Positions 212 to 11,641 of a stretch of 11,641 nucleotides of DNA are shown here, piece after piece. Source of the DNA: Planctomycetota bacterium (lineage in GTDB: Bacteria > Planctomycetota > GCA-002687715 > DRQF01); the NCBI GenBank assembly GCA_036479435.1, contig JAZGFI010000182.1, positions 1 to 11,641 of the forward strand. The letters run 5' to 3'. Numbering within the stretch: position 1 is the first letter of the stretch; each line of letters opens with the position of its first letter. The position numbers were made by a program, and so were the translations under genes. Below the pieces are notes generated by a model that was given only the letters and a program-made list of their open reading frames with translations, was not told where the DNA came from and did no database searches.

Positions 212-1765
212 TTAGTTGGGCCTTGGGTGCAAAGGGATGATGAGGTCGCTTCGGTTGAATCCCCAGTGAGGACCTCGCGCCTTTATCTGTTCGGAACCAA
301 AGACCTTCAAGGAATCATCGGGGCGAGCCACGTATTTCCCGTACGAAGAAGCACCGTTCTTCTGCCGCAAGTAGCCCCTTACAGATTGCACCCGCAGATC
401 AGCGGCTTGATCAAGGGTTACCGTCACGATTCCCCAAGAACTCGTGCTCGTTGAAATGGTTCTTCCGCTGCCGTCGCGGTAGGCCAAAACAACGTGGGCA
501 CCGGGAGAAACGTTCTTACCTTCGAACTGGAGCTTGGCGACATGCTGAAACGCTCGCTTTAGTTTGAAACGCAGATGCTGAGTCTTGGGTTCTGACTTGA
601 GCTTCATGCGGCGCTGATGGCCGCCGACAACCAAAAAGGGAGCATGTTCCTCGCCAATCTTTAGCCAGTAGTTCCCTGGTGCAAGCCCGCGAAAAACGCA
701 ACGGCCTTTGATGAGTTTCCCGGTGCGGCTGCTCTCCGGTGTCAAGTCTGCGACCAAGGCCATACCCGCCACATTCGAGCCGGCTGACGCCGCAACCATG
801 GCTACTGAGATACCGCCCAAGTCAGTGCCGCCTTCAAGCTGAGCTTCGACCAAAAAATCAATCTTGGCCAGGTGGATCTCGAGAGGAGCAAGGGCTTGCT
901 CACCGCCGACGACAACTTCCACTCTCGTCATCGGAAAGCCATCCGCGAAAACGTCAACGAACCAATGGCCACTCTCCCAAGGCCTAAGCTCAAAAGCACC
1001 ATTCAAATCTGTCCGTGTGGCAGTTTTCGGAGTGTCCAGGGTGGGGACGCTCACCATCTCAAACCAGTCGTCCACTTGCATCAGCCTCACTCGGGCTCCA
1101 ACGACCGGACGACGCTCGACGCCCGCGAACAGCACTTGCCCGCTCACTCGATCCATCGAGCGGACATCTATCTCCAAAAACTGGTCGGGGTTCGCCATCG
1201 AGACCACAACTGAAATAGAGGACACACTCCAATGACGTAGACCTCCGCTAACCGCTGGAGCACCGGTCCTTCGGGATTCTTTTGAGCCCTCGGGAGTGTC
1301 GAAGCTGAGATAACGTTTCCGCAACTCTGGAAGATCCAAGACAATCAACCCGCTAACCCTCAAGGCTATGCGGCCATCACGAATGTCCTCGAACTCAAAA
1401 CTCCCGTCCGCCTTCGTCACTGCCGGCTGGTGCCCGTGGAGAAAGATCTGGCGACCACCCAACTCAAGCTTGCGTTCGCGAGACCGCAAGCGGCCGCGGA
1501 TACGAAAGCTGGGAGTAGCCAACACCTTCTCGGCGAGCTCAGGCAAATCCTCTACCAAACGCCCAATTTGTGATTCAGGGCCGAGGACTTCTTGCTGGGA
1601 GTTCGAGCGCCGAGCTTCCTTTTCGGCGGACGAAGGCGCATCCAACGACGACAAAGATGGATCGGCCAAGACTTCGGCATCAGCATCCACAGGCCAGCTC
1701 AAGCCGAAAGCCAGAATTCCGGCCATGAGAATCGCTATCAGCAAGATGACAACTCGAAATCTCAA
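212..1765 (-). CDS. Exported/membrane-anchored protein with carboxypeptidase regulatory-like (prealbumin-like beta-sandwich) domains
   Basis: 517-aa ORF, TTG start, hydrophobic N-terminus, motifs such as VSGQVLFAG..RPVVGARVRL...TRTDLNGAFEL and FRGLAPGNYWL; full-length paralogue of 1790..3370. Confidence 0.85.
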   Translation of the reverse strand: MRFRVVILLIAILMAGILAFGLSWPVDADAEVLADPSLSSLDAPSSAEKEARRSNSQQEVLGPESQIGRLVEDLPELAEKVLATPSFRIRGRLRSRERKLELGGRQIFLHGHQPAVTKADGSFEFEDIRDGRIALRVSGLIVLDLPELRKRYLSFDTPEGSKESRRTGAPAVSGGLRHWSVSSISVVVSMANPDQFLEIDVRSMDRVSGQVLFAGVERRPVVGARVRLMQVDDWFEMVSVPTLDTPKTATRTDLNGAFELRPWESGHWFVDVFADGFPMTRVEVVVGGEQALAPLEIHLAKIDFLVEAQLEGGTDLGGISVAMVAASAGSNVAGMALVADLTPESSRTGKLIKGRCVFRGLAPGNYWLKIGEEHAPFLVVGGHQRRMKLKSEPKTQHLRFKLKRAFQHVAKLQFEGKNVSPGAHVVLAYRDGSGRTISTSTSSWGIVTVTLDQAADLRVQSVRGYLRQKNGASSYGKYVARPDDSLKVFGSEQIKARGPHWGFNRSDLIIPLHPRPN

Positions 1766-1789
1766 GTCCGTTTTCCAGAAAAGATTGGG

Positions 1790-3370
1790 CTATTGGGGCC
1801 TTAGGCGCAAAGGGATGATGAACTCGGTACGACCGATGCCCCGGTTGGGGCCTCGAGCCTTGATCTCATCAGTACCAAAAACACTCAGTGAAACGGAAGC
1901 AGGATCTTCGAAATGCCCGTGCCAGCGAGTGCCGTTTTCTTGCGCCAGGGAGCCCTCCACCGACAGTAGACGCAAATCCACTCTTCGATCCAGGGTTACC
2001 TTCACGATTCCCCAACGGCTCGTGGTCGTCGAAAGGGTTCTTCCGCTGCCATCGCGATAGGCCAAGACCACCTTGGCGCCCGGGATGATGTCTTTACCTC
2101 CGAATTGGAGTCTGGCGACATGCTGAAACGCTGGTTTCAATCTAAATCGCACTCGCTGGGTTGTGGAATCTGGCTTGATCGTCACGCGACGCTGATAGCC
2201 GCCGACGACGAAATAGGGAGAATGCTCTTTGCCGAAACTGATCCAGTAGTCTCCCGGTGCGAGGCCGTGAAAAACACAGCGCCCCTCGACAAGGTTCTGG
2301 GTTCGGCTGAGGCCAGACGCGCTGCCGAGAAGAAACTCAGCATCGCCCATGCTTCCTCCGTTCACCGCCGCAACCATGGTGATCGCAAGGTTGCCCAAGT
2401 CACTGCGGCAGTCATGATCCACCTCGACCAAGACATCAATTTTTGCCAAGCGAATCTCGAGGGGCACAAGAGGTTGATCTCCTCCAACGACGATCTCAAC
2501 GCGCGTCGTCGAAAAACCCTCCGCCAAGACGTCGACGAACCAGTGTCCGTTGCCCAACACTCCCAGATCGAAAGCGCCATCCACATCCGTCTTGGGATCA
2601 TTGACTTCAGAGATCCCGGCGGCGTACTGAAATATCCACGATTCCCAATTAGAAATCCGAATCCTCGCCCCGGCGACTGGAAGATTGTCTTCCCCCGCGT
2701 AGAGCACCCGCCCTTTCAGTCGAGGAAGCAAACGAACATCGATCTCAATGAACTGGTCGGGTTTCAGCTCCGAGACCGAGATAGATATGGTTGGCAAACC
2801 CCAAGAAACTCGACTTTTGGAAACACCCGGTTCGCCAGATTGTTTGAACTTCGCTTGCTCTTTTGGAACGTCGAGATCAAGAAATCGCTTTCGCAGCTCT
2901 CGCAGATCCAAAGCCAGTCCACTGTCAACTCTCAGGGTTCTAGGCCCCTCGACAAGACCATCAAACTCAAAACTTCCGTCAGCGCTCGTCACCGCCGGTT
3001 TTTGACCTTGAAGCAAAACGAGGCGACCACCTATCTCAAGTTGAGGATCGCGAGTGCGCAAGCGACCGCGGAGGCGAAACCGGCGCGTCGGCAGTTCTCG
3101 CGAGGTCGCTGGGGGCAGCTCTTCTTCAAAGGGCCGGGGTCGTTGAACTGCATTGGAGGCTACCTGAAGGGAGTCGACCGCCCGTGCCGGAACTTGCTGA
3201 ACTCCAAAACTTCGCCGTGCTTTTGCTCTGACGGCCGAAGGCACAGCGACTAAGGGTTGAGACGGATCGGCCAGGTCTTCGGCGTCGTTAACGTCGGCCA
3301 ACCCTATGACAATGGCGATCAGCAAGCCGACCAAGCCCATGATCAGCCAACTTGCAGTTCGGAGGCTCAA
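1790..3370 (-). CDS. Exported/membrane-anchored protein with carboxypeptidase regulatory-like domains (paralogue)
   Basis: ORF track gives 1790..3466, which overlaps the upstream gene. TTG at 3370 (MSLRTASWLIMGLVGLLIAIVIGL) matches the paralogue start and lies 4 nt after the upstream stop; ATG at 3340 is an alternative. Motifs LKGRVLYAGEDNLPVAGARIRI, KTDVDGAFDL, FHGLAPGDYWI. Confidence 0.85.
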   Translation of the reverse strand: MSLRTASWLIMGLVGLLIAIVIGLADVNDAEDLADPSQPLVAVPSAVRAKARRSFGVQQVPARAVDSLQVASNAVQRPRPFEEELPPATSRELPTRRFRLRGRLRTRDPQLEIGGRLVLLQGQKPAVTSADGSFEFDGLVEGPRTLRVDSGLALDLRELRKRFLDLDVPKEQAKFKQSGEPGVSKSRVSWGLPTISISVSELKPDQFIEIDVRLLPRLKGRVLYAGEDNLPVAGARIRISNWESWIFQYAAGISEVNDPKTDVDGAFDLGVLGNGHWFVDVLAEGFSTTRVEIVVGGDQPLVPLEIRLAKIDVLVEVDHDCRSDLGNLAITMVAAVNGGSMGDAEFLLGSASGLSRTQNLVEGRCVFHGLAPGDYWISFGKEHSPYFVVGGYQRRVTIKPDSTTQRVRFRLKPAFQHVARLQFGGKDIIPGAKVVLAYRDGSGRTLSTTTSRWGIVKVTLDRRVDLRLLSVEGSLAQENGTRWHGHFEDPASVSLSVFGTDEIKARGPNRGIGRTEFIIPLRLRPQ

Positions 3371-3374
3371 GAGC

Positions 3375-4721
3375 CTAAAGCTCACGCAGCGAGACGGCTT
3401 CTTGCCAAGCCTGATCGATCGGCCGCAAGATCGTGCCGTCGTTACTGCGCAAACCAATTCCCACAAAGGGCGGGAACATGGCTTGGCCGTCTACGTCGTG
3501 CAGGAACAACCACTGAACGAGCTTCATGTTGATGTTGGTGGTGAGCGAAAAGAAGCGGTCAAGGAAGGCGACTTGGTCAGCTTGGCCACCCGGGTAGGGA
3601 AAACTGGGTGCCGCCAACCAGCCAATCTCGCTAAAAGCCACCGGTCCCCGATCCCAATGCGCAGAGATGTCGTCGTAGTGGCTGGCGGGGATCGCGGCTG
3701 GCGTGGCGTACTCAAGGTAGGGGTAGCTCGTGAAGGCCGCGATATCCATCGGCCCGTCGAGCACCATTTGGTCAAAAGCGGGCCAAGTAACCCCGTGGGC
3801 CCAACCTTGACCCTCACCCTTTAGGAACTCGAGTTGAAAAGTCAGGTAGACCTTCGTGTTGGAACTCGCCAACTTGATAGCGTCGTAGGCATCCTGGTAA
3901 AGCGAGATCCAATCGGCGTACTCTGATGGGTGCGTCGCCCACCAGATGTTGAACTCGTTGGCAATCGCTAACCGCTTAGGACGGTAGGTCGCCGCCACCG
4001 CAGTCAACATGTCCAAGAACTCTTGCCGGGTTTCGGCATTGGTCCAAGTGTTGTTGTTGGGTTGGCTGTCGCTGGTCAGGTCAGGGACCCCTTGCCCATC
4101 GGCCCAACCCAAGACCAAAGTCGGCTCGATGCCGAACTGGTCGCGGGCCGCCATGGCGCTTTGCACCAGCATCGGGATCTCAGCGTTGGTGTCGCCGTCG
4201 TCGCGCCAATTCGTGTGGTAGCCGACGAGTCGACCGTGCGTTGTCGCCGTCAAGAAATCGAGCGCGTCTTGCGTGACGACTCCGACATCGTGGCCCAGTG
4301 GTGAGTAAGCCGTACCCATCAAGATGCCCTGGTGGACGCGCAGGCTGAAGTTTACTTTCGCCATCTGCCTGCCGTCTCGTGCCTCAATCCGAACCGACGC
4401 AGTACCGAGATCGCCGAGAGTTGGAGTCCAGGTAATCCGCCCCAAGTTGTCGACGGTCAATCCCGAAGGGCCATAAATCACGATGTAAGTCGGCGTGCTC
4501 TTGGGGCCGAGCAGCGTCAGCTTGAATCCCCATGGCACATCGACTTCAAGGTTCGAAAGCGCCGCCGGCGCGACCAAAAACTGCAGATCGACATCCACGT
4601 CGCTATCGACACGGTTCAATCCACACCCGGCAATGAGGGTTAAGGCCAAAAGGCAAGTCGCTAGCAACGAAGCCACAAGATTTTGACTTGAGTTACGACC
4701 CGACTGCTTTGAGAATCTCAT
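3375..4721 (-). CDS. Lipoprotein with putative Ig (He_PIG-like) domain and clan GH-A glycoside-hydrolase-like TIM barrel
   Basis: 448 aa; lipobox LIAG-C33; Ig-like segment GPSGLTVDNLGRITWTPTLGDLGTASVRIEARDG; GH-A-type acid/base motif LAIANEFN and nucleophile motif VAFSEIGW. Exact GH family not determinable by eye. Confidence 0.75.
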   Translation of the reverse strand: MRFSKQSGRNSSQNLVASLLATCLLALTLIAGCGLNRVDSDVDVDLQFLVAPAALSNLEVDVPWGFKLTLLGPKSTPTYIVIYGPSGLTVDNLGRITWTPTLGDLGTASVRIEARDGRQMAKVNFSLRVHQGILMGTAYSPLGHDVGVVTQDALDFLTATTHGRLVGYHTNWRDDGDTNAEIPMLVQSAMAARDQFGIEPTLVLGWADGQGVPDLTSDSQPNNNTWTNAETRQEFLDMLTAVAATYRPKRLAIANEFNIWWATHPSEYADWISLYQDAYDAIKLASSNTKVYLTFQLEFLKGEGQGWAHGVTWPAFDQMVLDGPMDIAAFTSYPYLEYATPAAIPASHYDDISAHWDRGPVAFSEIGWLAAPSFPYPGGQADQVAFLDRFFSLTTNINMKLVQWLFLHDVDGQAMFPPFVGIGLRSNDGTILRPIDQAWQEAVSLREL

Positions 4722-4849
4722 GGCAGAATCCTATCAGAAGGACTCAGGCGCTTCTCTTCGAAAAGCGCCCTGGCGCCGACAAGGCATCAACTTGGCGATC
4801 CCGCGGCGTGAAAGCGGCGGGCATGACGTCGACGAAGGCGAGCAACACC

Positions 4850-5746
4850 ATGACCAGAGAAACCCGTGTCGTCGATAACCGAGTGTTCTTGACCGGTTTA
4901 GACGAGCTTTACCGCACGGCGATGATGCAACACGAGAGCAGCGAACTGCTAACTTGCGCCCGACGCGTCGCCGAAAAACTCAAAGCACAACCAGCAAACC
5001 TGCCCGTCGCGGGCTACTACGTCAAATCCAAAGAGCTGACTGAGTTCTTCCTCCTCATGAAGGCTCTTCAGGAAATTGGCGAAGACCAAAGGCCTGAGGT
5101 GGAGACGATGCCCGAGTATCAACGCCTGCTGGCCGTCACTTCCTCCGCTTTGTATGGCCGCCCCGCGCAGACCGGCAAACTACTGCCCCTGGCGATCAAC
5201 TCTCTCACTCAAGCCCTGGGGGAATCGGAAAACTGGTCGCTCCAAGAACTGGTCAAGACGGCCAGCAAAGTGGCGAGGGGCAATGATGACGACTCCATCG
5301 TCGGCCTCGCCGCATTGGCCAAAGATGCGCTGATGGTGGTCGCTACAAGTGAGTCGGTGACTCTTTTCACCTTAGATTCCACAACGTCAGCGTGGCCAGG
5401 CCGCAGAGAACCACCTCGCTACCTATGGAAGGTTGATGCCGATCTCAGCGAGCGCGCAACACGATTCGTTGAAACCTTCAACGCCCTTTTTGTTGAGGAT
5501 CTCCCCCGACCAGGCCAACATCAAGCTGAGGCCTACTGGCGAGCAGCCCGTTCCGACACGCACTTGGGTCGCTGCGTTTGTCTTGGCAGGAGCTTTGGCG
5601 ATCACCACTACTATCACTGGGCCATCCGTCGCAGTGAAGCCGGTGGGTACGAAGTCGACGAATTCTGGCATGCCGAACGGTGGACCACGGCGCGCTATCG
5701 TGAATCCATTGGGTATGTGGGCATAGCTTCGGCGCCCGGATTTTGA
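4850..5746 (+). CDS. Hypothetical protein (weak DUF3160-like motif)
   Basis: Long ORF (track 4688..5746); ATG 4850 or 4823 avoids overlap with the divergent gene. PVAGYYVKSKELTEFFLLMKAL resembles the GHY..S..L..YF..M motif I recall from DUF3160 (tentative). Confidence 0.7.
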   Translation: MTRETRVVDNRVFLTGLDELYRTAMMQHESSELLTCARRVAEKLKAQPANLPVAGYYVKSKELTEFFLLMKALQEIGEDQRPEVETMPEYQRLLAVTSSALYGRPAQTGKLLPLAINSLTQALGESENWSLQELVKTASKVARGNDDDSIVGLAALAKDALMVVATSESVTLFTLDSTTSAWPGRREPPRYLWKVDADLSERATRFVETFNALFVEDLPRPGQHQAEAYWRAARSDTHLGRCVCLGRSFGDHHYYHWAIRRSEAGGYEVDEFWHAERWTTARYRESIGYVGIASAPGF

Positions 5747-5789
5747 AGTCCTCTCCAAGAAAACCAGCTTTGGTCACCAGCACTGCGGT

Positions 5790-6284
5790 CTAAGCGGGAT
5801 CTTGACCAAGCCAACAATTCTGCGTCGAGAGTTCTTTGGCCCCGGCCGCTTTGGCCTGCAAAAACAGCTGCATTCGGTAGGCGGCATAGAACTTCAATGT
5901 CGTATTGACGAGCACCTCGCCCAGCATTGCCTCACCACCCCAAGGGTAGGCCACCTTGCGGCTGACCAGATCTTCGTCGCTCACTTCGACAAGGATCGAC
6001 TCAATCTTCGCAAGTTGGCGATCCAGCTGGGCTGGGAAATCCGAAGGCACGACGTCCGCATCTCCGCTTTCTTCGTAGACCTCCTTGAATTTATCCCAGC
6101 CGTGGATCGCACAATAGGCTGGCAACCAGCCACAAGTCCCAAGGTAAACCAGCAGCTCTTTCGTGCTTCTCATTCCCTCTGCGATCCGAAACCCCATTGC
6201 CCCCTCTGGAATCTTGCTCTGAAGATGCTTCAGTATCTGCGTTTCACTGCGGACTGAGTCAAGAAACTGCTTGCGATCGAACAT
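5790..6284 (-). CDS. DinB/YfiT-like four-helix-bundle protein
   Basis: 164 aa, AGGAG RBS upstream; family pattern IPEGAMGFR...RSTKELLVYL ... SDEDL...YPWG ... YRMQLFLQAKAAG. Not the DNA polymerase IV dinB. Confidence 0.8.
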   Translation of the reverse strand: MFDRKQFLDSVRSETQILKHLQSKIPEGAMGFRIAEGMRSTKELLVYLGTCGWLPAYCAIHGWDKFKEVYEESGDADVVPSDFPAQLDRQLAKIESILVEVSDEDLVSRKVAYPWGGEAMLGEVLVNTTLKFYAAYRMQLFLQAKAAGAKELSTQNCWLGQDPA

Positions 6285-6535
6285 GGAATTTCACTCCTGG
6301 ATTTTTTGGAAACCGATGATGACAGCAAACCCCGAGGAACTCCAAGAATTCGTTCCTGGGCAGGCATCTCATGCTCCTCCGTCACGATGCGAGCTCCATC
6401 CCCATGCTTCAGGTAGGCAAACTGGTGCAAGTCGGCGATAGTCTTCTCTTGCGGCCGAGCGCAACCCGAAGCAAGAAAAAGAAATGCCACCAAGCACAAG
6501 CCGCTTTCAACGACGCCCCCCGACAAGACCTTCAT
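6230..6535 (-). CDS. Possible small or truncated lipoprotein
   Basis: ATG start, hydrophobic stretch and lipobox LASG-C; 3' end overlaps the DinB-like gene by 55 nt and is Ser-rich. Confidence 0.4.
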   Translation of the reverse strand: MKVLSGGVVESGLCLVAFLFLASGCARPQEKTIADLHQFAYLKHGDGARIVTEEHEMPAQERILGVPRGLLSSSVSKKSRSEIPCSIASSFLTQSAVKRRY

Positions 6536-6608
6536 GCTGATTTCCCGCCCACTCCATCGCCAAGTTCAGCCGCGGTTCTTGGGGCTTTGATTGCCCATCG
6601 CGAATCAC

Positions 6609-7654
6609 TTACTCCGCTCGATCAAAGTCCAAGATCAGTCTTTTGATCTCTTCGCTTTTTTTGTCGGTGATCTCGAGGAGTACTTCCCGATCGACATCGA
6701 ATGGTCCAGTAACCTGTCCCAAGGAGATACCCTCAATGGCGCCCCGTTTCCATTTGCTGGACCGAGGTGCGACACGAAGCTCATAGCTCCTTGGTCGCTC
6801 GGCCGGAAGATGAAAGCAAAGGACGTCATCAACGTAGGAACGAATCATCAGTTCCACGCGCGGCGCATCTGATCTCGCCAAACGTATTTTCCAAGAACCG
6901 TTGCCAAGGGTGGGCAAAGTCTCTGAAAGCCGAATGGAGAGAATTGCTGCCCACTCCAAGCGAACCTCTTCAGGGATGGGAATGTTGCGAAGACTCTTGG
7001 CAGCGATGCTTCGAACGCCATTTCTGGCGAACTGAAAGGGTGGACTGATGTAGATGTCGGCCAGGGCACCGCTTGCTGCCCCAAAGCGGAACTCACCCTG
7101 GGATTCTGTTTTGCCGCTCTCATGAACGGTTCCAGTCTGCTGTTCAAGGCTGCACCTGACTTCTGCCCCAATCAGCGGCTTCCCTTTGGGATCGAGAACT
7201 CTGATCGAGTAACGTCGCCGATCGTTGTCGATGACGATAGACTGAAGGCGATCCGATTGGGTCGACTTGCCCGACATCACGACGATGCCGCTTTCTCGCA
7301 ACACGACCTTTCTTCGATACAGCAACTCGAGGGTGTAAGTCCCCGGGTTCAATGCCTCCGGAATCAGAGCACCACCCCCTCTAAGCCTGATGTTGCGCTC
7401 AGTATTGTCGTCCTCCGAAATAACGCGCGCCGAAATCTCCGCACGGTTGAACAGCTCTAACTAGCCGATAGCCAGCCAACCTCTGATGAAACCACCTCGG
7501 AAAACGACAAGGCTAAGGGCTTGATCTCCCGGCTCAAAAGGCCTCGGTTCTCCCTGCCAAGGCCCAAGGGCTGATAGCTGATGCTGTGCATTCTCAAGGG
7601 CATGGCCGCAAATCTCGAATCGCCCGTCGGCATCACTCGCCTTCGAGTAGAAGC
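6609..7654 (-). pseudogene. 3' part of a large carboxypeptidase regulatory-like domain gene, interrupted by IS1182 and carrying an in-frame TAG
   Basis: Track ORFs 7461..7796 and 6609..7352 share a frame: ...GFIRGWLAIG*LELFNRAEISARV...IPEALNPGTYTLEL..., with a single TAG at 7463-7461. Motif IRVLDPKGKPLIGAEV...GKTESQGEFRF. Confidence 0.85.
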
Positions 7655-7851
7655 CTAGGAGCGTGCGCCACTGGACGGATTTGGCGACGCGAGGAATGCC
7701 CACCGGCATTTGTTTTGAGCCGAATCGCGTTTGTGGGATTTCGAGCGTCAGTCGCTCGCTGTTGAGATCGCCAAGCCAGCTTGGCGGCGCAGGCATTTCA
7801 CTTGGCCGTCGTTGATTGATTTAGCGGTCTGCACCGCCGCCCTTGGTCGAA

Positions 7852-8773
7852 TCATGTCCATGTGATGAGCTGGTTCATCCGCCTCAGGTTCACTACGAAG
7901 GCAACGAGAGAGAATTCGCCAGCGGCTTTCTTCTTTCCTCTCACGCTGAATTGTCGAAAGCCCATCGCTGATTTGATCCAGCCGAAGGGTGCCTCGGCAA
8001 CCCACTTGCGCTCGCGGTAGCGCTTTTTTCCTCGCTCGGAGTTCATCTTCTTGGCCATCCTCTTGGTGGCCCTGTGCTTGTCATTGATCTTTTTCTTTGC
8101 GCCCTTTTCGCCGCGGCCGATTGCGACGTAGCCGTCAACACAGCGTCGTTCGAGTTCTTGAAGGTTTGCTTCGGAGCAATAGCCGGCGTCGGCCAGTACG
8201 CGCTTGGGATCAACGCCGTTGAAATTGAGTTTCGTACGATCGAGCACCGGTATCAGTTGTTGGAAGTCGGAGGCTTGCTCGGTGACTTGTGTCGCCACGA
8301 TGAGTTGGGAGTCCCGGTCAACGCCAATCTGAGCATTATAGCCCTGCACATACCCCTTCGCGCTCTTCATGATTCGGCTCTCGGGGTCGGTAAAGTTGTC
8401 CTGAGCCTTATCGGGGGGCGTCCCAAAGGAACGCGCATGTGGTCGGCCACGCCGGCATTTTTGATCATCCCCCTCCGAGCGGCCCGCCGCTGAATCCTTG
8501 GCCTTTTGACGTTCTTCCAAACGAGCCTTCGCCTCCTGGATTGCTTTGAGCCGCTTCTCCGCCCGAGCAAGTTCGTCCGGAAGCTCGTCGCCACGAGACT
8601 CTCCGTGCTCACCATCTTCGGCTTCATCAACCTCCGATGCCTTCTTCGTCAATTCGCCAACTCTCTCCTTCAGCTTCTTCTCTTCCTCAATCATCCGGCC
8701 GTAGCTCATCGCCTTGTGCTTGCTCGCATTGGCTCTGATCTTCGTCCCGTCGATACCGATCGTCCCGAGTTTC
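7852..8773 (-). pseudogene. IS1182-family transposase, C-terminal part (DDE region)
   Basis: KLGTIGIDGTKIRANASKHKAMSY, NFTDPESRIMK, QGYNAQIGVD, LADAGYCSE and RKWVAEAPFGWIK..MGFRQFSVRG are typical IS1182 motifs. Confidence 0.93.
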
Positions 8774-8779
8774 GCTAGG

Positions 8780-8857
8780 TGTGAGCAGCCAACTTATTTG
8801 AGGTCAAATCGACGATTTATCGCCACGCTCTTTGAGGCTCGTTGGGTTCTGAGCCTC
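8780..8857 (+). repeat. Left end with repeated TTTGAGG motifs (putative transposase-binding sites)
   Basis: TTTGAGG at 8797-8803 and 8831-8837; CCACGCTCTTTGAGGCTCG (8823-8841) is the exact 19-bp reverse complement of 9921-9939. Confidence 0.8.
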
Positions 8858-9041
8858 GTTTACCTTGGCGTTCGGCATCCGAGCTATGCCTTTGAAAACC
8901 TCGGGGGTTTAAGGGGGCTGGCCCCCTTCTTTGTGCAAGCGCCGCAGGCGCTACCGCTTGGCAATGCCGTCAGTTTCGTCTCTTGACTTTTCCGTTGTCA
9001 GAGCCAAAGTGCTGTCGACACGCGATAGACGAGGCGAGAAT

Positions 9042-9590
9042 TTGACCAATCCAATACTGGGCCAGTCCAAGCTATGGCCACTCCTTTTCCGTTTGGATGT
9101 CGTACTGCGCGACGAACTGCAGGCTAAGGGCTGTATGCACTGCGGTTCGCGTCTCGACCGCGCCGACTACGAACGAAAACCACGCGGCGGACCAGACCTC
9201 CGTGGTGATGTCTTCCAACTTCGACTGAGCCTATGTTGCTCGTCGCCTTCATGTCGTCGCAGGGCCACTCCGCCATCCACCCGTTTTCTTGGCCGCCGTG
9301 TCTACCTTGGAGCGGCGGTGGTCCTTGTGTCGGCCTTTCACCAAGGCCCAAGCCCAAAACACACAAAGGCGCTGGCGGCAGCTTTGGGAGTGGGAATAAG
9401 GACCATCGACAGATGGTCCAAGTGGTGGCGGGAAGATTTCCAGCAAAGTCGTCTTTGGCGGCGGCTCCGAGGGCTTGTTCTGCATGCAGACGAACCAGTT
9501 CCGAGACGATTCGTCTTAGCGTTCGACGCCGAATTTGACGTCAGAAAGCAATCCCTCATGATGTCGTTTCTTTGCGGAGCCAGTCCATAA
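9042..9590 (+). CDS. Zn-finger + helix-turn-helix accessory protein of Mu-like/IS481-related elements (DUF6431-like, tentative)
   Basis: GAGG RBS then TTG at 9042 (182 aa); CMHC...YERKPRG...RLSLCCSSPSCRRRATPPSTRFLGRRVY, then HTH-like LAAALGVGIRTIDRWSKWW. I recall this type of ORF preceding DDE integrase + ExeA-type ATPase genes. Confidence 0.75.
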   Translation: MTNPILGQSKLWPLLFRLDVVLRDELQAKGCMHCGSRLDRADYERKPRGGPDLRGDVFQLRLSLCCSSPSCRRRATPPSTRFLGRRVYLGAAVVLVSAFHQGPSPKHTKALAAALGVGIRTIDRWSKWWREDFQQSRLWRRLRGLVLHADEPVPRRFVLAFDAEFDVRKQSLMMSFLCGASP

Positions 9591-9898
9591 TTCGCCAAGT
9601 TCTTTGTCCCGACGACTGAAAATGACGATCCACGCAGAAGATGTCCCAAGGCTCGAAATCGCCAAACGAATGCTCTTGAGTTTGCACCAAAGGAACGCGC
9701 AACCTATCGCACAGTCATGATTGAACGGGAAACCGAACGGCCCCAATGGTGGCGATTTTCGCCGATCATTGGCGGCGCTGTGGAGTGACTGCCCAAGTAG
9801 GCGCAGCAAATGCTGCCCCGACATGGTCAACGCGAAAGAGCGCCCCGCCAGCCAAATCGCCGTCACTACGGGCCATCTGTCCGAATTGCGGTATTTAG

Positions 9899-9972
9899 AC
9901 TCAAGATCGCGCTGCCGTTTCGAGCCTCAAAGAGCGTGGAGTCGGAAACCTCAAGATGCGTGGGTGCTTACA
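9899..9972 (-). repeat. Right end with three repeated motifs (putative transposase-binding sites)
   Basis: CCTCAAGATGCGTGG (9949-9963), CCTCAAAGAGCGTGG (9925-9939), ACTCAAGATCGCGCT (9899-9913); spacing 24 and 26 bp. Confidence 0.8.
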
Positions 9973-10373
9973 GCTAGGCCGGCCTCACGCGCGATCAGAA
10001 GAAGCTGTACGAATAGGTTTTCGAAGTCATCCAGATGCTGTTGACGAAACCGGCAGATCGTCCGGTGGCTCGGGAAATTTGTCCCGGCCAAATAGCGCGT
10101 CGGCACGTCCTCCTCGACAGCTCTCGCGATCTTCCTCGAAGAAAACACTCCTCGCGCGTACGAGTACACCAACACCCGCAACAGCATTCGGGGATCGTAG
10201 GGCTGCGCGCGACGGCCGTCTCCGTCGTAGCGACCGTAGAATGCCGATAGATCGAGTTCGTCGATCGCGTCCGCAATGAAGTACACCAGATGATCTTCCC
10301 GCAGCCACTCACGCGGCGACGCGGGGAACAACCAACACTGGTCTGGTTCGTATCCGCGGAACGTGGTTCCCAT
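9973..10373 (-). pseudogene. IS1182-family transposase, N-terminal part (DUF772-type)
   Basis: ATG 10373 with AGGAGG RBS; LFPASPREWLREDHLVYFI, PYDPRMLLRVLVYSYARGVFSSRKIARA, PSHRTICRFR. Joins the C-terminal part in frame (EAGLA|KLGTIGIDGT) to give 440 aa. Confidence 0.93.
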
Positions 10374-10463
10374 CGATATCGCCCTCCTGTGACACGATAT
10401 CAACCCAAAGACAGGTCCGAAAACGCTGTTGCGATTCCGGCAGCTCTTCTGTGGCGCACGCTC

Positions 10464-11346
10464 CTAGGGAGAATCTAGCCGAGCGCCGTGCTTTGGTCTT
10501 GGAAGCAAGGACGACTCCTGCAATGGGCTGACCTTTATGATCTAGAACTTGCCCCTTAGCGATGAGCGGCAGGCTTGGGATCTTCACTTCCCCCACATCG
10601 ATGCGAGCGTGTTCGCTAAGTGCGTTGAAAGAGATCTCCGCATAGACACCTCGGATTCGACGTCCGAGGTAGCCGCCGCCGCGTGCATTCGAAGACACCT
10701 TTAGCGTACCTTGGGCCAAGGTATCGAACTGAAAGGACCACGCCCCCGGCGATTCACCCTTAATGATCCGGTGTTCAATCCACTCCCCTTCTGTGTCCAA
10801 AAACTCGATCCGAACTCGGTTCTCGAGCTTTATCACTGGGCCCGCATCATCCGTCAGTCGAAGAGAAACAATTGGTTTTCTGCTCTGCTGCTTCGACCAC
10901 GTCGCGAGTTCTTCGGACCAGTTGATCTTGAGATCGTGAGTGCCCGACGATGGGATGTCGATGACTTTCGACGGGTCTTCGCGGCCTTCAAGCTCAAGGG
11001 TGAAGCAGACGATTCCAGACGGATCGAAGGCGGCGAGACGGAGTCCATCCTTGGGATTCGCGAAACTCCATCTGTCCTTTAGATGCGCAAGTCTCTTCGC
11101 GACTGGAGAGGGGTGCGAGTGGATTCTCGTCAACCATTCCATGTGAGGCTTTTTAGAAGTGCGCCCCGTATTGACGAAGAGGCGATCAACCTTCTGCGAA
11201 TCGTCGATGCCAAGAAACTGTAGGCTCATCGTGACCGGACGAGGTACAACGACTTCCAACTCGACTAGGCTTCCCTTCTTCAGCTGAAAGCGCTTGATGA
11301 TCGACTCACCTGTCCTTCCCGAAAACTCGAAAGCTATCCCCCTTTG
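10464..11346 (-). pseudogene. Upstream part of the same disrupted exported-protein gene
   Basis: Removing the IS and one CTAG joins ...GQVLDHKGQPIAGVVLASKTKARRSARFSL to GFYSKASDADGRFEICGH in frame. The frame is open to 11409 (GTG) but has no signal peptide; its 5' end is probably cut near 11346 by another IS. Confidence 0.8.
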
Positions 11347-11359
11347 TGTCAACGTCGAT

Positions 11360-11388
11360 GAGACAATCTTCGAAACAGAGTTTAGTGT
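11360..11388 (+). promoter_or_regulatory. Putative sigma70-type promoter for the ORF at 11411
   Basis: GAGACA (11360-11365), 17-bp spacer, TAGTGT (11383-11388); RBS GGAGGA at 11397-11402. Confidence 0.4.
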
Positions 11389-11410
11389 AGAAGGGCGGAG
11401 GATTTTCACG

Positions 11411-11488: not shown

Positions 11489-11641
11489 TGTAAGCACCCA
11501 CGCATCTTGAGGCTCCCAGCATCGCGCTATTTGAGGCCTCTCTTGGACTTCAAGTAAGTGAGGCCCACGCCGAGTTCCCTCGTCGTGAGCCTCTTTGCCC
11601 GAAGGCTTCCGAGTCCCGGCTATCCCTTGGCGGGTTGCTCC
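11489..11641 (+). mobile_element. Terminus of a second, related TGT...ACA-family element extending beyond the window
   Basis: TGTAAGCACCCACGCATCTTGAGG (11489-11512) is identical to the reverse complement of 9949-9972; a second TTGAGG follows 24 bp later (11531-11536) and GTGAGG at 11558-11563; internal sequence then diverges. Confidence 0.88.

Follow-up and report, generated by a model that had tools for sequence, protein, structure and literature searches.

An 11,641-nucleotide stretch of Planctomycetota DNA (the window) contains a 1,193-bp mobile element that is almost certainly a non-autonomous derivative of Tn6049. This element retains an intact homologue of one transposon gene, tnmB, and behind it a 13-bp box that recurs in nearly all related loci. 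The Tn6049 family itself is known; what is new is the box, its place at the mapped start of the transposase gene tnmA, and the short form that carries tnmB only. These observations are drawn together in a proposal that we regard as doubtful when taken as a whole: the Tn6049 family would carry its own activator, TnmB, which reads one box across many phyla, and a class of transposase-less parasites, laden in some lineages with kilobases of cargo, would repeatedly have retained the activator and the box, thereby turning on, in trans, the transposase made by full-size copies.

Viewed as one insertion, the element is unremarkable. Tn6049, however, has a name but no classification, and the papers searched assign no function to tnmB despite its large protein family; searches of the openly accessible literature found neither the box, nor derivatives with tnmB only, nor a study of what TnmB does. 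Together, the box and the mapped start provide an exact and testable hypothesis that links a protein, a site and a promoter. If TnmB activates, Tn6049 would be an unusual, compact transposon that switches on its own transposase, and non-autonomous elements would keep a regulator and not just ends. If TnmB instead represses or works in cis, the retention of the gene by short elements would still be explained.

A short Tn6049-family element and its helper

A first-pass annotation made from the sequence had described TGT...ACA termini, multiple inward TTGAGG repeats, an exact 6-bp duplication and an intact 182-amino-acid open reading frame, and all of these features are confirmed at positions 8774-9978 (Table 1). 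The inner part of the left end is 85-87% identical over 172 nucleotides to the left ends of full-size copies, and the outer 24 nucleotides of the right end are identical to family right ends. The second core unit of the right end is a copy of the second unit of the left end, and nucleotides 8823-8841 form a perfect 19-bp inverted pair with 9921-9939. Inward TTGAG cores number two at the left end and three at the right end within 80 nucleotides of the termini, a pattern equalled in none of 20,000 dinucleotide-block shuffles. The reading frame could also be opened at ATG 8964 or TTG 8931, while homologues start at 9042.

Table 1. Features of the short element and its insertion site (window positions)
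Feature	Positions	Strand	Remark
Interrupted IS1182 transposase gene, 3' part (DDE_Tnp_1)	7852..8773	-	
Left copy of 6-bp target duplication, GCTAGG	8774..8779	.	exact match to 9973..9978
1,193-bp element, non-autonomous, assigned with high confidence to the Tn6049 family	8780..9972	+	
Element left end	8780..8955	+	TGT terminus; TTGAGG cores at 8798 and 8832
Putative tnmB promoter	8983..9010	+	TTGACT, 16 nt, CAAAGT; by eye and family context; absent from promoter-scanner list
tnmB homologue	9042..9590	+	182 aa, TTG start, intact
Conserved 13-bp box	9631..9643	+	CACGCAGAAGATG; family form CCCGCAGARGATG
Site of the family -10 hexamer	9671..9676	+	here TGCTCT, without the conserved A
Tail in common with the sister short element on contig C188	9677..9865	+	88% over 9591-9813
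Element right end	9866..9972	-	ACA terminus (9970-9972); TTGAG cores at 9954, 9930 and 9904 reading inward
Right copy of target duplication, GCTAGG	9973..9978	.	
Interrupted IS1182 transposase gene, 5' part (DUF772)	9979..10403	-	

The insertion lies in an IS1182 transposase gene, a host that the earlier annotation did not state. Removal of the insert restores a 450-amino-acid frame with no internal stops. The interrupted gene occurs once in the assembly, and the joint of an empty site was not seen among the contigs of five sequencing runs, which cannot show absence. Elsewhere in the window, a set of minus-strand paralogues, of which some have carboxypeptidase-regulatory-like domains, is encoded at 212-3466, 6609-7352 and 10309-11409, with 212-1765 and 1790-3466 forming an apparent tandem duplication; a lipoprotein-like frame (3375-4721, minus strand) has a He_PIG Ig domain and, by eye, a glycoside hydrolase barrel-like region. 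The standard right end of another family copy (11489..11641, minus strand) is cut by the contig end, and its duplication partner is absent from the assembly.

The earlier statement that no recognisable DDE transposase or ATPase gene is present also stands, since tblastn with the proteins of the full-size helper described below gave no match on the contig and an HMM of 56 transposase N-termini found nothing significant in the tail. A by-eye resemblance of 9718-9789 to a transposase start proved not significant, and the tail cannot be significantly aligned to the start of the helper's transposase gene. Examined as protein or structured RNA, the tail (9677-9865) has no codon pattern and no unusual fold (z -0.5), and Rfam gave no matches. 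The element is therefore not a complete, autonomous Tn6049, given that tnmA and gspA are missing and the tnmA promoter is represented by a box without a -10. Nor is it a MITE, a class that carries no protein-coding gene, because it contains an intact, conserved reading frame.

Plasmid matches led to Tn6049 of Cupriavidus metallidurans CH34, whose genes are named tnmB, tnmA, gspA and tnmC (PMC13192273 supplement 2). The product of the element's frame is 37% identical to CH34 TnmB over 170 amino acids (E 3e-31). Earlier papers describe Tn6049 in CH34 as a 3.5-kb element in 12 copies with a gspA-like ATPase (PMC2864759), state that the module "could not be categorized" (PMC6210171), and report 12-bp imperfect repeats with a 4-bp duplication on pHS87a (PMC4739549). 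The protein family is large: a search at E 0.001 gave 2,291 homologues, and at 50% identity the family has 2,667 representatives. A direct protein-pattern search of GTDB found nothing, viral contigs gave one 17-residue match, and the best PHROGs match had an E of 0.09. One neighbour in the Atlas, of 202 amino acids, is commonest in Actinomycetota.

We examined 83 related loci, comprising the best 80 of 309 matches from a GTDB alignment search and three distant metagenomic loci, from a scan that gave at least that many, with ends set by copy-to-copy alignment. All three genes are present in 56, a zinc gene and a transposase with no ATPase seen in 14, and the zinc gene alone in 11; the remaining two lie at a contig edge. 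This distribution, together with a helper in the same genome, bears out the proposal that the element derives from one encoding a zinc-finger protein, a DDE integrase and an ExeA-type ATPase. The three-gene layout resembles the annotated Rv2811-Rv2813 (IS1604) cluster.

The first-pass annotation had called for an autonomous helper with the same ends, and one is found in the organism's own assembly (299 contigs, 92% complete). A full-size copy with left end, tnmB, transposase and ATPase can be read across contigs C15 and C67, whose 127-nucleotide overlap we treat as an assembly adjacency because the helper is a collapsed repeat. Known only in pieces (C15, C67 and C209), it has the same ends and 6-bp duplications as the short element. 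Its tnmB product is 58% identical to the 182-amino-acid protein, and C67 encodes a 491-amino-acid rve transposase and an AAA_22 ATPase, which are 47% identical to TnmA and, over the 170 amino acids present, 61% identical to GspA. The transposase scores below the NCBIfam cut-offs for IS481 (141 versus 224) and IS21 (42 versus 160). We infer that TnmA and GspA from such full-size copies would move the short element in trans. The same genome also carries a second, distant transposase-plus-ATPase element, 25-28% identical to the helper (G000:C210:890-2586, L107).

The assembly contains 35 left-type and 20 right-type family ends, mostly at contig ends. Thirteen left-right pairs share an exact 6-bp duplication, compared with a mean of 1.3 and a maximum of 6 in 5,000 permutations, and the corresponding numbers at 4, 5, 7 and 8 bp are 2, 1, 0 and 0. 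Family-wide, the 6-bp target shows the preference S-Y-N-N-R-S: in 33 of 42 distinct sites the second base is a pyrimidine and the fifth a purine, against a background of 24%. A sister short form, with its left part on C205 and C102 and its right part on C188 and encoding protein P0001, is 85% identical to the 1,193-bp form, has the same tail, and ends on C188 in a left-type terminus. Two other left-type ends, at G000:C80 14800 and G000:C237 17961, adjoin the same duplication, CCAAGG, so that, as on C188, some copies may have a left end on both sides.

Sequencing runs point to more than one copy of the short element. Part of it is present in 11 runs from seven studies, and half or more in seven of those runs. 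Among the five runs examined as unitigs, mismatch-free interior unitigs have about twice the depth of the flanks in X1, X3, X4 and X5 (18-24 versus 9.5 in X1; 96-115 versus 47-52 in X5), and in X4 and X5 the doubled depth ends near 9785. In X1 and X3, from studies P1 and P2, a unitig of the right end (9911-9972) with six differences continues into a different flank, whose first bases, CTGTAG, match the family target preference; neither this flank nor a second copy is in the assembly. A second full-length insertion is likely and no more than that, because depth is a poor measure of copy number and unitigs are unphased. Of the multiple copies expected if the element moves in this form, the runs show a second right end at another site; together with the perfect duplication, this is indirect evidence for mobilisation in trans. 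The evidence also departs from the picture of a single copy made by simple deletion, given this second right end, a tail that does not align to the helper's transposase start, and a sister form that is 15% diverged and has the same tail. Two junctions are of another kind: at 9709 in X3 and X4 a left-type family end abuts the element in one unitig, the mark of a full-size copy that either inserted into a copy of the short element or was joined to it by rearrangement, and in X6 the element runs out at 9909 (junction 9905-9909) into the middle of an ordinary 769-amino-acid gene (G000:C152:2962), by rearrangement or as a chimera. No RNA runs carrying the element were listed.

A conserved box at the tnmA promoter

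When up to three mismatches in 13 positions and a wider window are allowed, 84 of 87 loci have the box CCCGCAGARGATG after tnmB; at no more than two mismatches in 11, it lies behind or at the end of tnmB in 78 of 86 rows. Its range extends from Planctomycetota to Pseudomonadota and Actinomycetota. The motif holds about 24 bits of information and has one clear site in each of five elements scanned, and its three top genome-wide scores are three element copies. The distance from the tnmB stop codon varies, from about -41 to +42 nucleotides in most rows, indicating that the box is not a coding constraint.

A second signal occurs at a fixed distance from the box. Among 60 distinct full-size loci, 44 carry a TAnnnT hexamer at offset 36-40, whereas control windows average 0.5 with a maximum of 3, and the gap between box and hexamer is about 27 nucleotides (26-28). 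The corresponding -35 is weak in the family, with best matches of two to four positions in six that lie slightly above those of shuffled sequences. We had predicted this -10 before the CH34 start-site tables were examined, and the mapped tnmA start, 21-22 nucleotides before the ATG in 12 of 12 CH34 copies (PMC13492112 supplement 3), falls directly behind it and so places the box at -52 to -40. These 12 starts count as one observation, because reads were evidently shared among identical copies. The same study calls the tnmA promoter a plain RpoD promoter with both boxes in position (PMC13492112), and an earlier CH34 table lists no tnmA start (PMC13192273).

The regions of the tnmB and tnmA promoters have further features. 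An inverted pair, CCCCTC...GAGGGG, surrounds the tnmB -35 in several loci (L001, L005, L014, L017, L025, L037, L073 and others), with a weaker version at 8980-9003, and a TGAGG-like word precedes the box by about 10 nucleotides. Because both resemble the core of the end repeats, they suggest that the transposase may also bind its own promoters.

The protein encoded by the element has conserved cysteines (C31, C34, C65, C66 and C71) that are predicted to form a zinc site, and a helix-turn-helix (HTH) at about residues 105-135; weak HTH_23 matches are present in 30 of 48 family members. Its structure model (pLDDT 74) gave no match at E 0.001 with Foldseek and generic HTH matches only, at Z 5 or less, with VIA-align. 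The zinc domain folded alone (pLDDT 60) retrieved nothing above Z 4.2, and a search of PDB sequences with the TnmB profile found nothing below E 0.2. DUF6431 (PF20020) has no match at E 0.05 among the 48 members, and Atlas neighbours at 0.94-0.97 carry this domain in 32-44% of their members. Residues T121, R124 and W125 of the HTH recognition helix are invariant in all 48 sequences, and R120 is kept in 45, as would be expected for a protein that reads an invariant box.

Judging from these sequence features, TnmB may well be a box-binding regulator of the tnmA promoter. It would bind the 13-bp box behind its own gene and regulate, probably activate, tnmA, activation being favoured because the box directly adjoins, on the upstream side, a poorly conserved -35. 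The site of the phage Mu activators Mor and C spans about -52 to -36 and directly precedes a weak -35. In the short element tnmB and the box are kept and the -10 is not, and its TnmB would consequently act on the promoters of helpers, raising the amount of the transposase on which this passenger depends. Considered apart from regulation in general, activation is a tentative reading.

Transcript data from CH34 temper this reading. Three copies of Tn6049 were read from PMC13492112 supplement 4, with the column order inferred from the ratio columns and Table 1 of that paper. A strong transcript into tnmB, at 2,000-8,000 counts, is present only in plasmid-bearing CH34 and drops to the floor value in plasmid-free AE104, whereas the tnmA start is weak and nearly equal with it (62, 73 and 85) and without it (45, 65 and 62). 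Under metal stress the tnmB start rises 2.4-fold in CH34 and the tnmA start falls in both strains (PMC13492112 supplement 4). There is no clear dose effect of the tnmB transcript on the tnmA start in these data, in which reads are shared among copies; this makes activation by TnmB less probable. The strong tnmB start itself, at nucleotides 8-9 of Tn6049, was considered as an intrinsic promoter and rejected, as it vanishes in the plasmid-free strain. It corresponds to L111 3849-3857, in the Tn6049 copy on pMOL28, and probably comes from one plasmid copy, where a junction promoter was probably created by the target duplication and the flank.

Retention of tnmB and possible roles of its product

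An unlikely alternative holds that TnmB bound to the box is required in cis for assembly of the transpososome, the promoter spacing reflecting double use of the site. Phage Mu has an internal enhancer that acts in transpososome assembly. Such a role would account for an intact box beside a decayed -10 in the 1,193-bp element, on C188, and in the L033 family with its 78% relatives L144, L145 and L153. It would also suit the perfect identity of 9622-9652 between the two short forms, whose tails differ at 12%, and a CH34 tnmA start that does not track the tnmB transcript. A box-to-hexamer spacing held constant across phyla is more in keeping with RNA polymerase geometry, however, and at 6% drift a 13-bp site has roughly an even chance of staying intact. 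Moreover, the -10 is retained in two of five transposase-less lineages (L035 and L055), and L024 and L045 are tnmB-only elements without the box.

We consider it similarly unlikely that tnmB is a neutral passenger, which adjoins the left end, inherited its conservation from full-size parents, and lies beside a tail later exchanged by recombination. Because of this position, truncations would keep tnmB in any case. Broken or frameshifted copies of the gene exist (L055, L080, L145 and G006:C146), ends can be mosaic, as the left-type terminus of C188 illustrates, and the element's protein has H107 where 44 of 48 sequences have arginine. Against neutrality, the two short forms differ with dS 0.55 and dN 0.08 over 113 codons, a sign of purifying selection (dN/dS 0.14, interval 0.07-0.26), and all 24 invariant residues are present in P0001, a sequence outside the alignment, an outcome with P 0.015 in a neutral simulation at 6% change. 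The tail is slower than the synonymous sites: it differs at 27 of 223 positions (12%) compared with 18 of 54 fourfold sites (33%; p 0.0004), a gap that points either to constraint on the tail or to a subsequent exchange, and part of the dN/dS signal may therefore predate the loss of transposase. Comparison of nonsynonymous sites with the tail gives a one-sided p of 0.04. Decay has erased every detectable trace of the transposase start from the short element but has spared tnmB.

Elements with tnmB only are also found in soil Planctomycetota and arose independently: an AU test on 24 rows rejects a single clade with p 2e-34, and a larger tree, of 86 rows, was built by a quick method only. The dN/dS values in this soil group are 0.17-0.66 for 10 pairs of five copies, a sixth, frameshifted copy being left out, and the interval reaches 1 or more in three of the 10, as neutrality would allow. 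However, divergence at second codon positions is below that of the tail in all 10 pairs, with p<0.05 in four, although the pairs are not independent. Two soil elements have both ends, a duplication and kilobases of cargo without tnmA or gspA (7.8 kb, GCTTT; 5.2 kb, ACGG), and two others examined at both ends showed no duplication. In L185 (G311:C42:139371-147177), L186 (G309:C1:86614-91793), L039 and L033, all tnmB-only, 3-8 kb lie between left and right ends; by eye, the cargo of L033 and L039 includes Ser/Thr kinase-TPR genes. The selection tests thus support, but stop short of proving, the first-pass suggestion that the retained gene does something in its own right; of the roles offered there, regulation has evidence, and none emerged for target choice or immunity.

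Regulation by TnmB could also take the form of repression, as with InsA, and short elements might then persist by damping a much-invading family. This version, which is counted within the regulator reading, strikes us as improbable. InsA is a zinc-finger and HTH repressor of the IS1 promoter and of transposition (PMC12903888), and Atlas clusters of InsA-type zinc ribbons are weak look-alikes of TnmB (0.77-0.78), useful as leads only. The weakness of the tnmA start would agree with repression, as would the persistence of tnmB-only elements where no helper is found; five soil genomes with such elements contain no close TnmA, the best match being 29%. Conversely, the family is evidently very active in the present genome, and AE104, without the strong tnmB transcript, shows no rise in the tnmA start. 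The location of the box upstream of the -35 also counts against repression, since such a position is unusual for a repressor site.

Finally, the suggestion of the first-pass annotation that the gene might serve target choice, for which zinc cysteines and an HTH in a transposase-ATPase element would suit a TniQ-like selector guiding the ATPase to insertion sites, is very improbable: insertion flanks show no conserved position within 60 nucleotides beyond S-Y-N-N-R-S and no fixed promoter-like position beside them, the box is internal to the element, TniQ/TnsD has no Pfam match among the 48 members and is absent from the fold-search lists, and domain order gives no TniQ link.

Comparison with known transposons

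The closest relative is Tn6049 of CH34, which likewise has tnmB first behind a TGT left end, the same box after tnmB and short, imperfect TGT...ACA termini, and whose TnmA and GspA have homologues in the genome of the short element. Unlike Tn6049, the short element measures 1.2 kb, lacks tnmA, gspA and tnmC, and has a decayed -10 at the tnmA promoter. The duplications also differ in length, with 6 bp in the 13 pairs described here compared with 5 and 6 bp in two CH34 copies and 4 bp on pHS87a.

Multi-site TGT/ACA ends had been likened at first reading to those of Tn7- and Tn5053-type systems, and subterminal repeat arrays are indeed present at both ends. Several inward repeat units at each end are also described for Tn552, Tn5053 and Tn7-like elements (PMC8649781), and the parent of the short element, like these transposons, pairs a DDE transposase with an AAA+ ATPase. 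In contrast to them, no TniQ/TnsD match and no resolvase is found in the element, the extra gene is TnmB, and the 5-bp duplication of Tn7-like elements and Tn5053 is not the rule (one pair at 5 bp versus 13 at 6 bp).

Phage Mu Mor and C offer a likeness in promoter architecture, namely a conserved box just upstream of the -35 of a mapped promoter. They show no sequence or fold match to TnmB, and are phage proteins where TnmB is the transposon's own. InsA of IS1 is alike as a small zinc-finger and HTH protein encoded by a mobile element, whose promoter it controls as TnmB would, and differs in being the N-terminus of the transposase and in binding the ends (PMC12903888). TnmB is instead encoded by a separate gene, has no profile match to its transposase, and has an internal candidate site.
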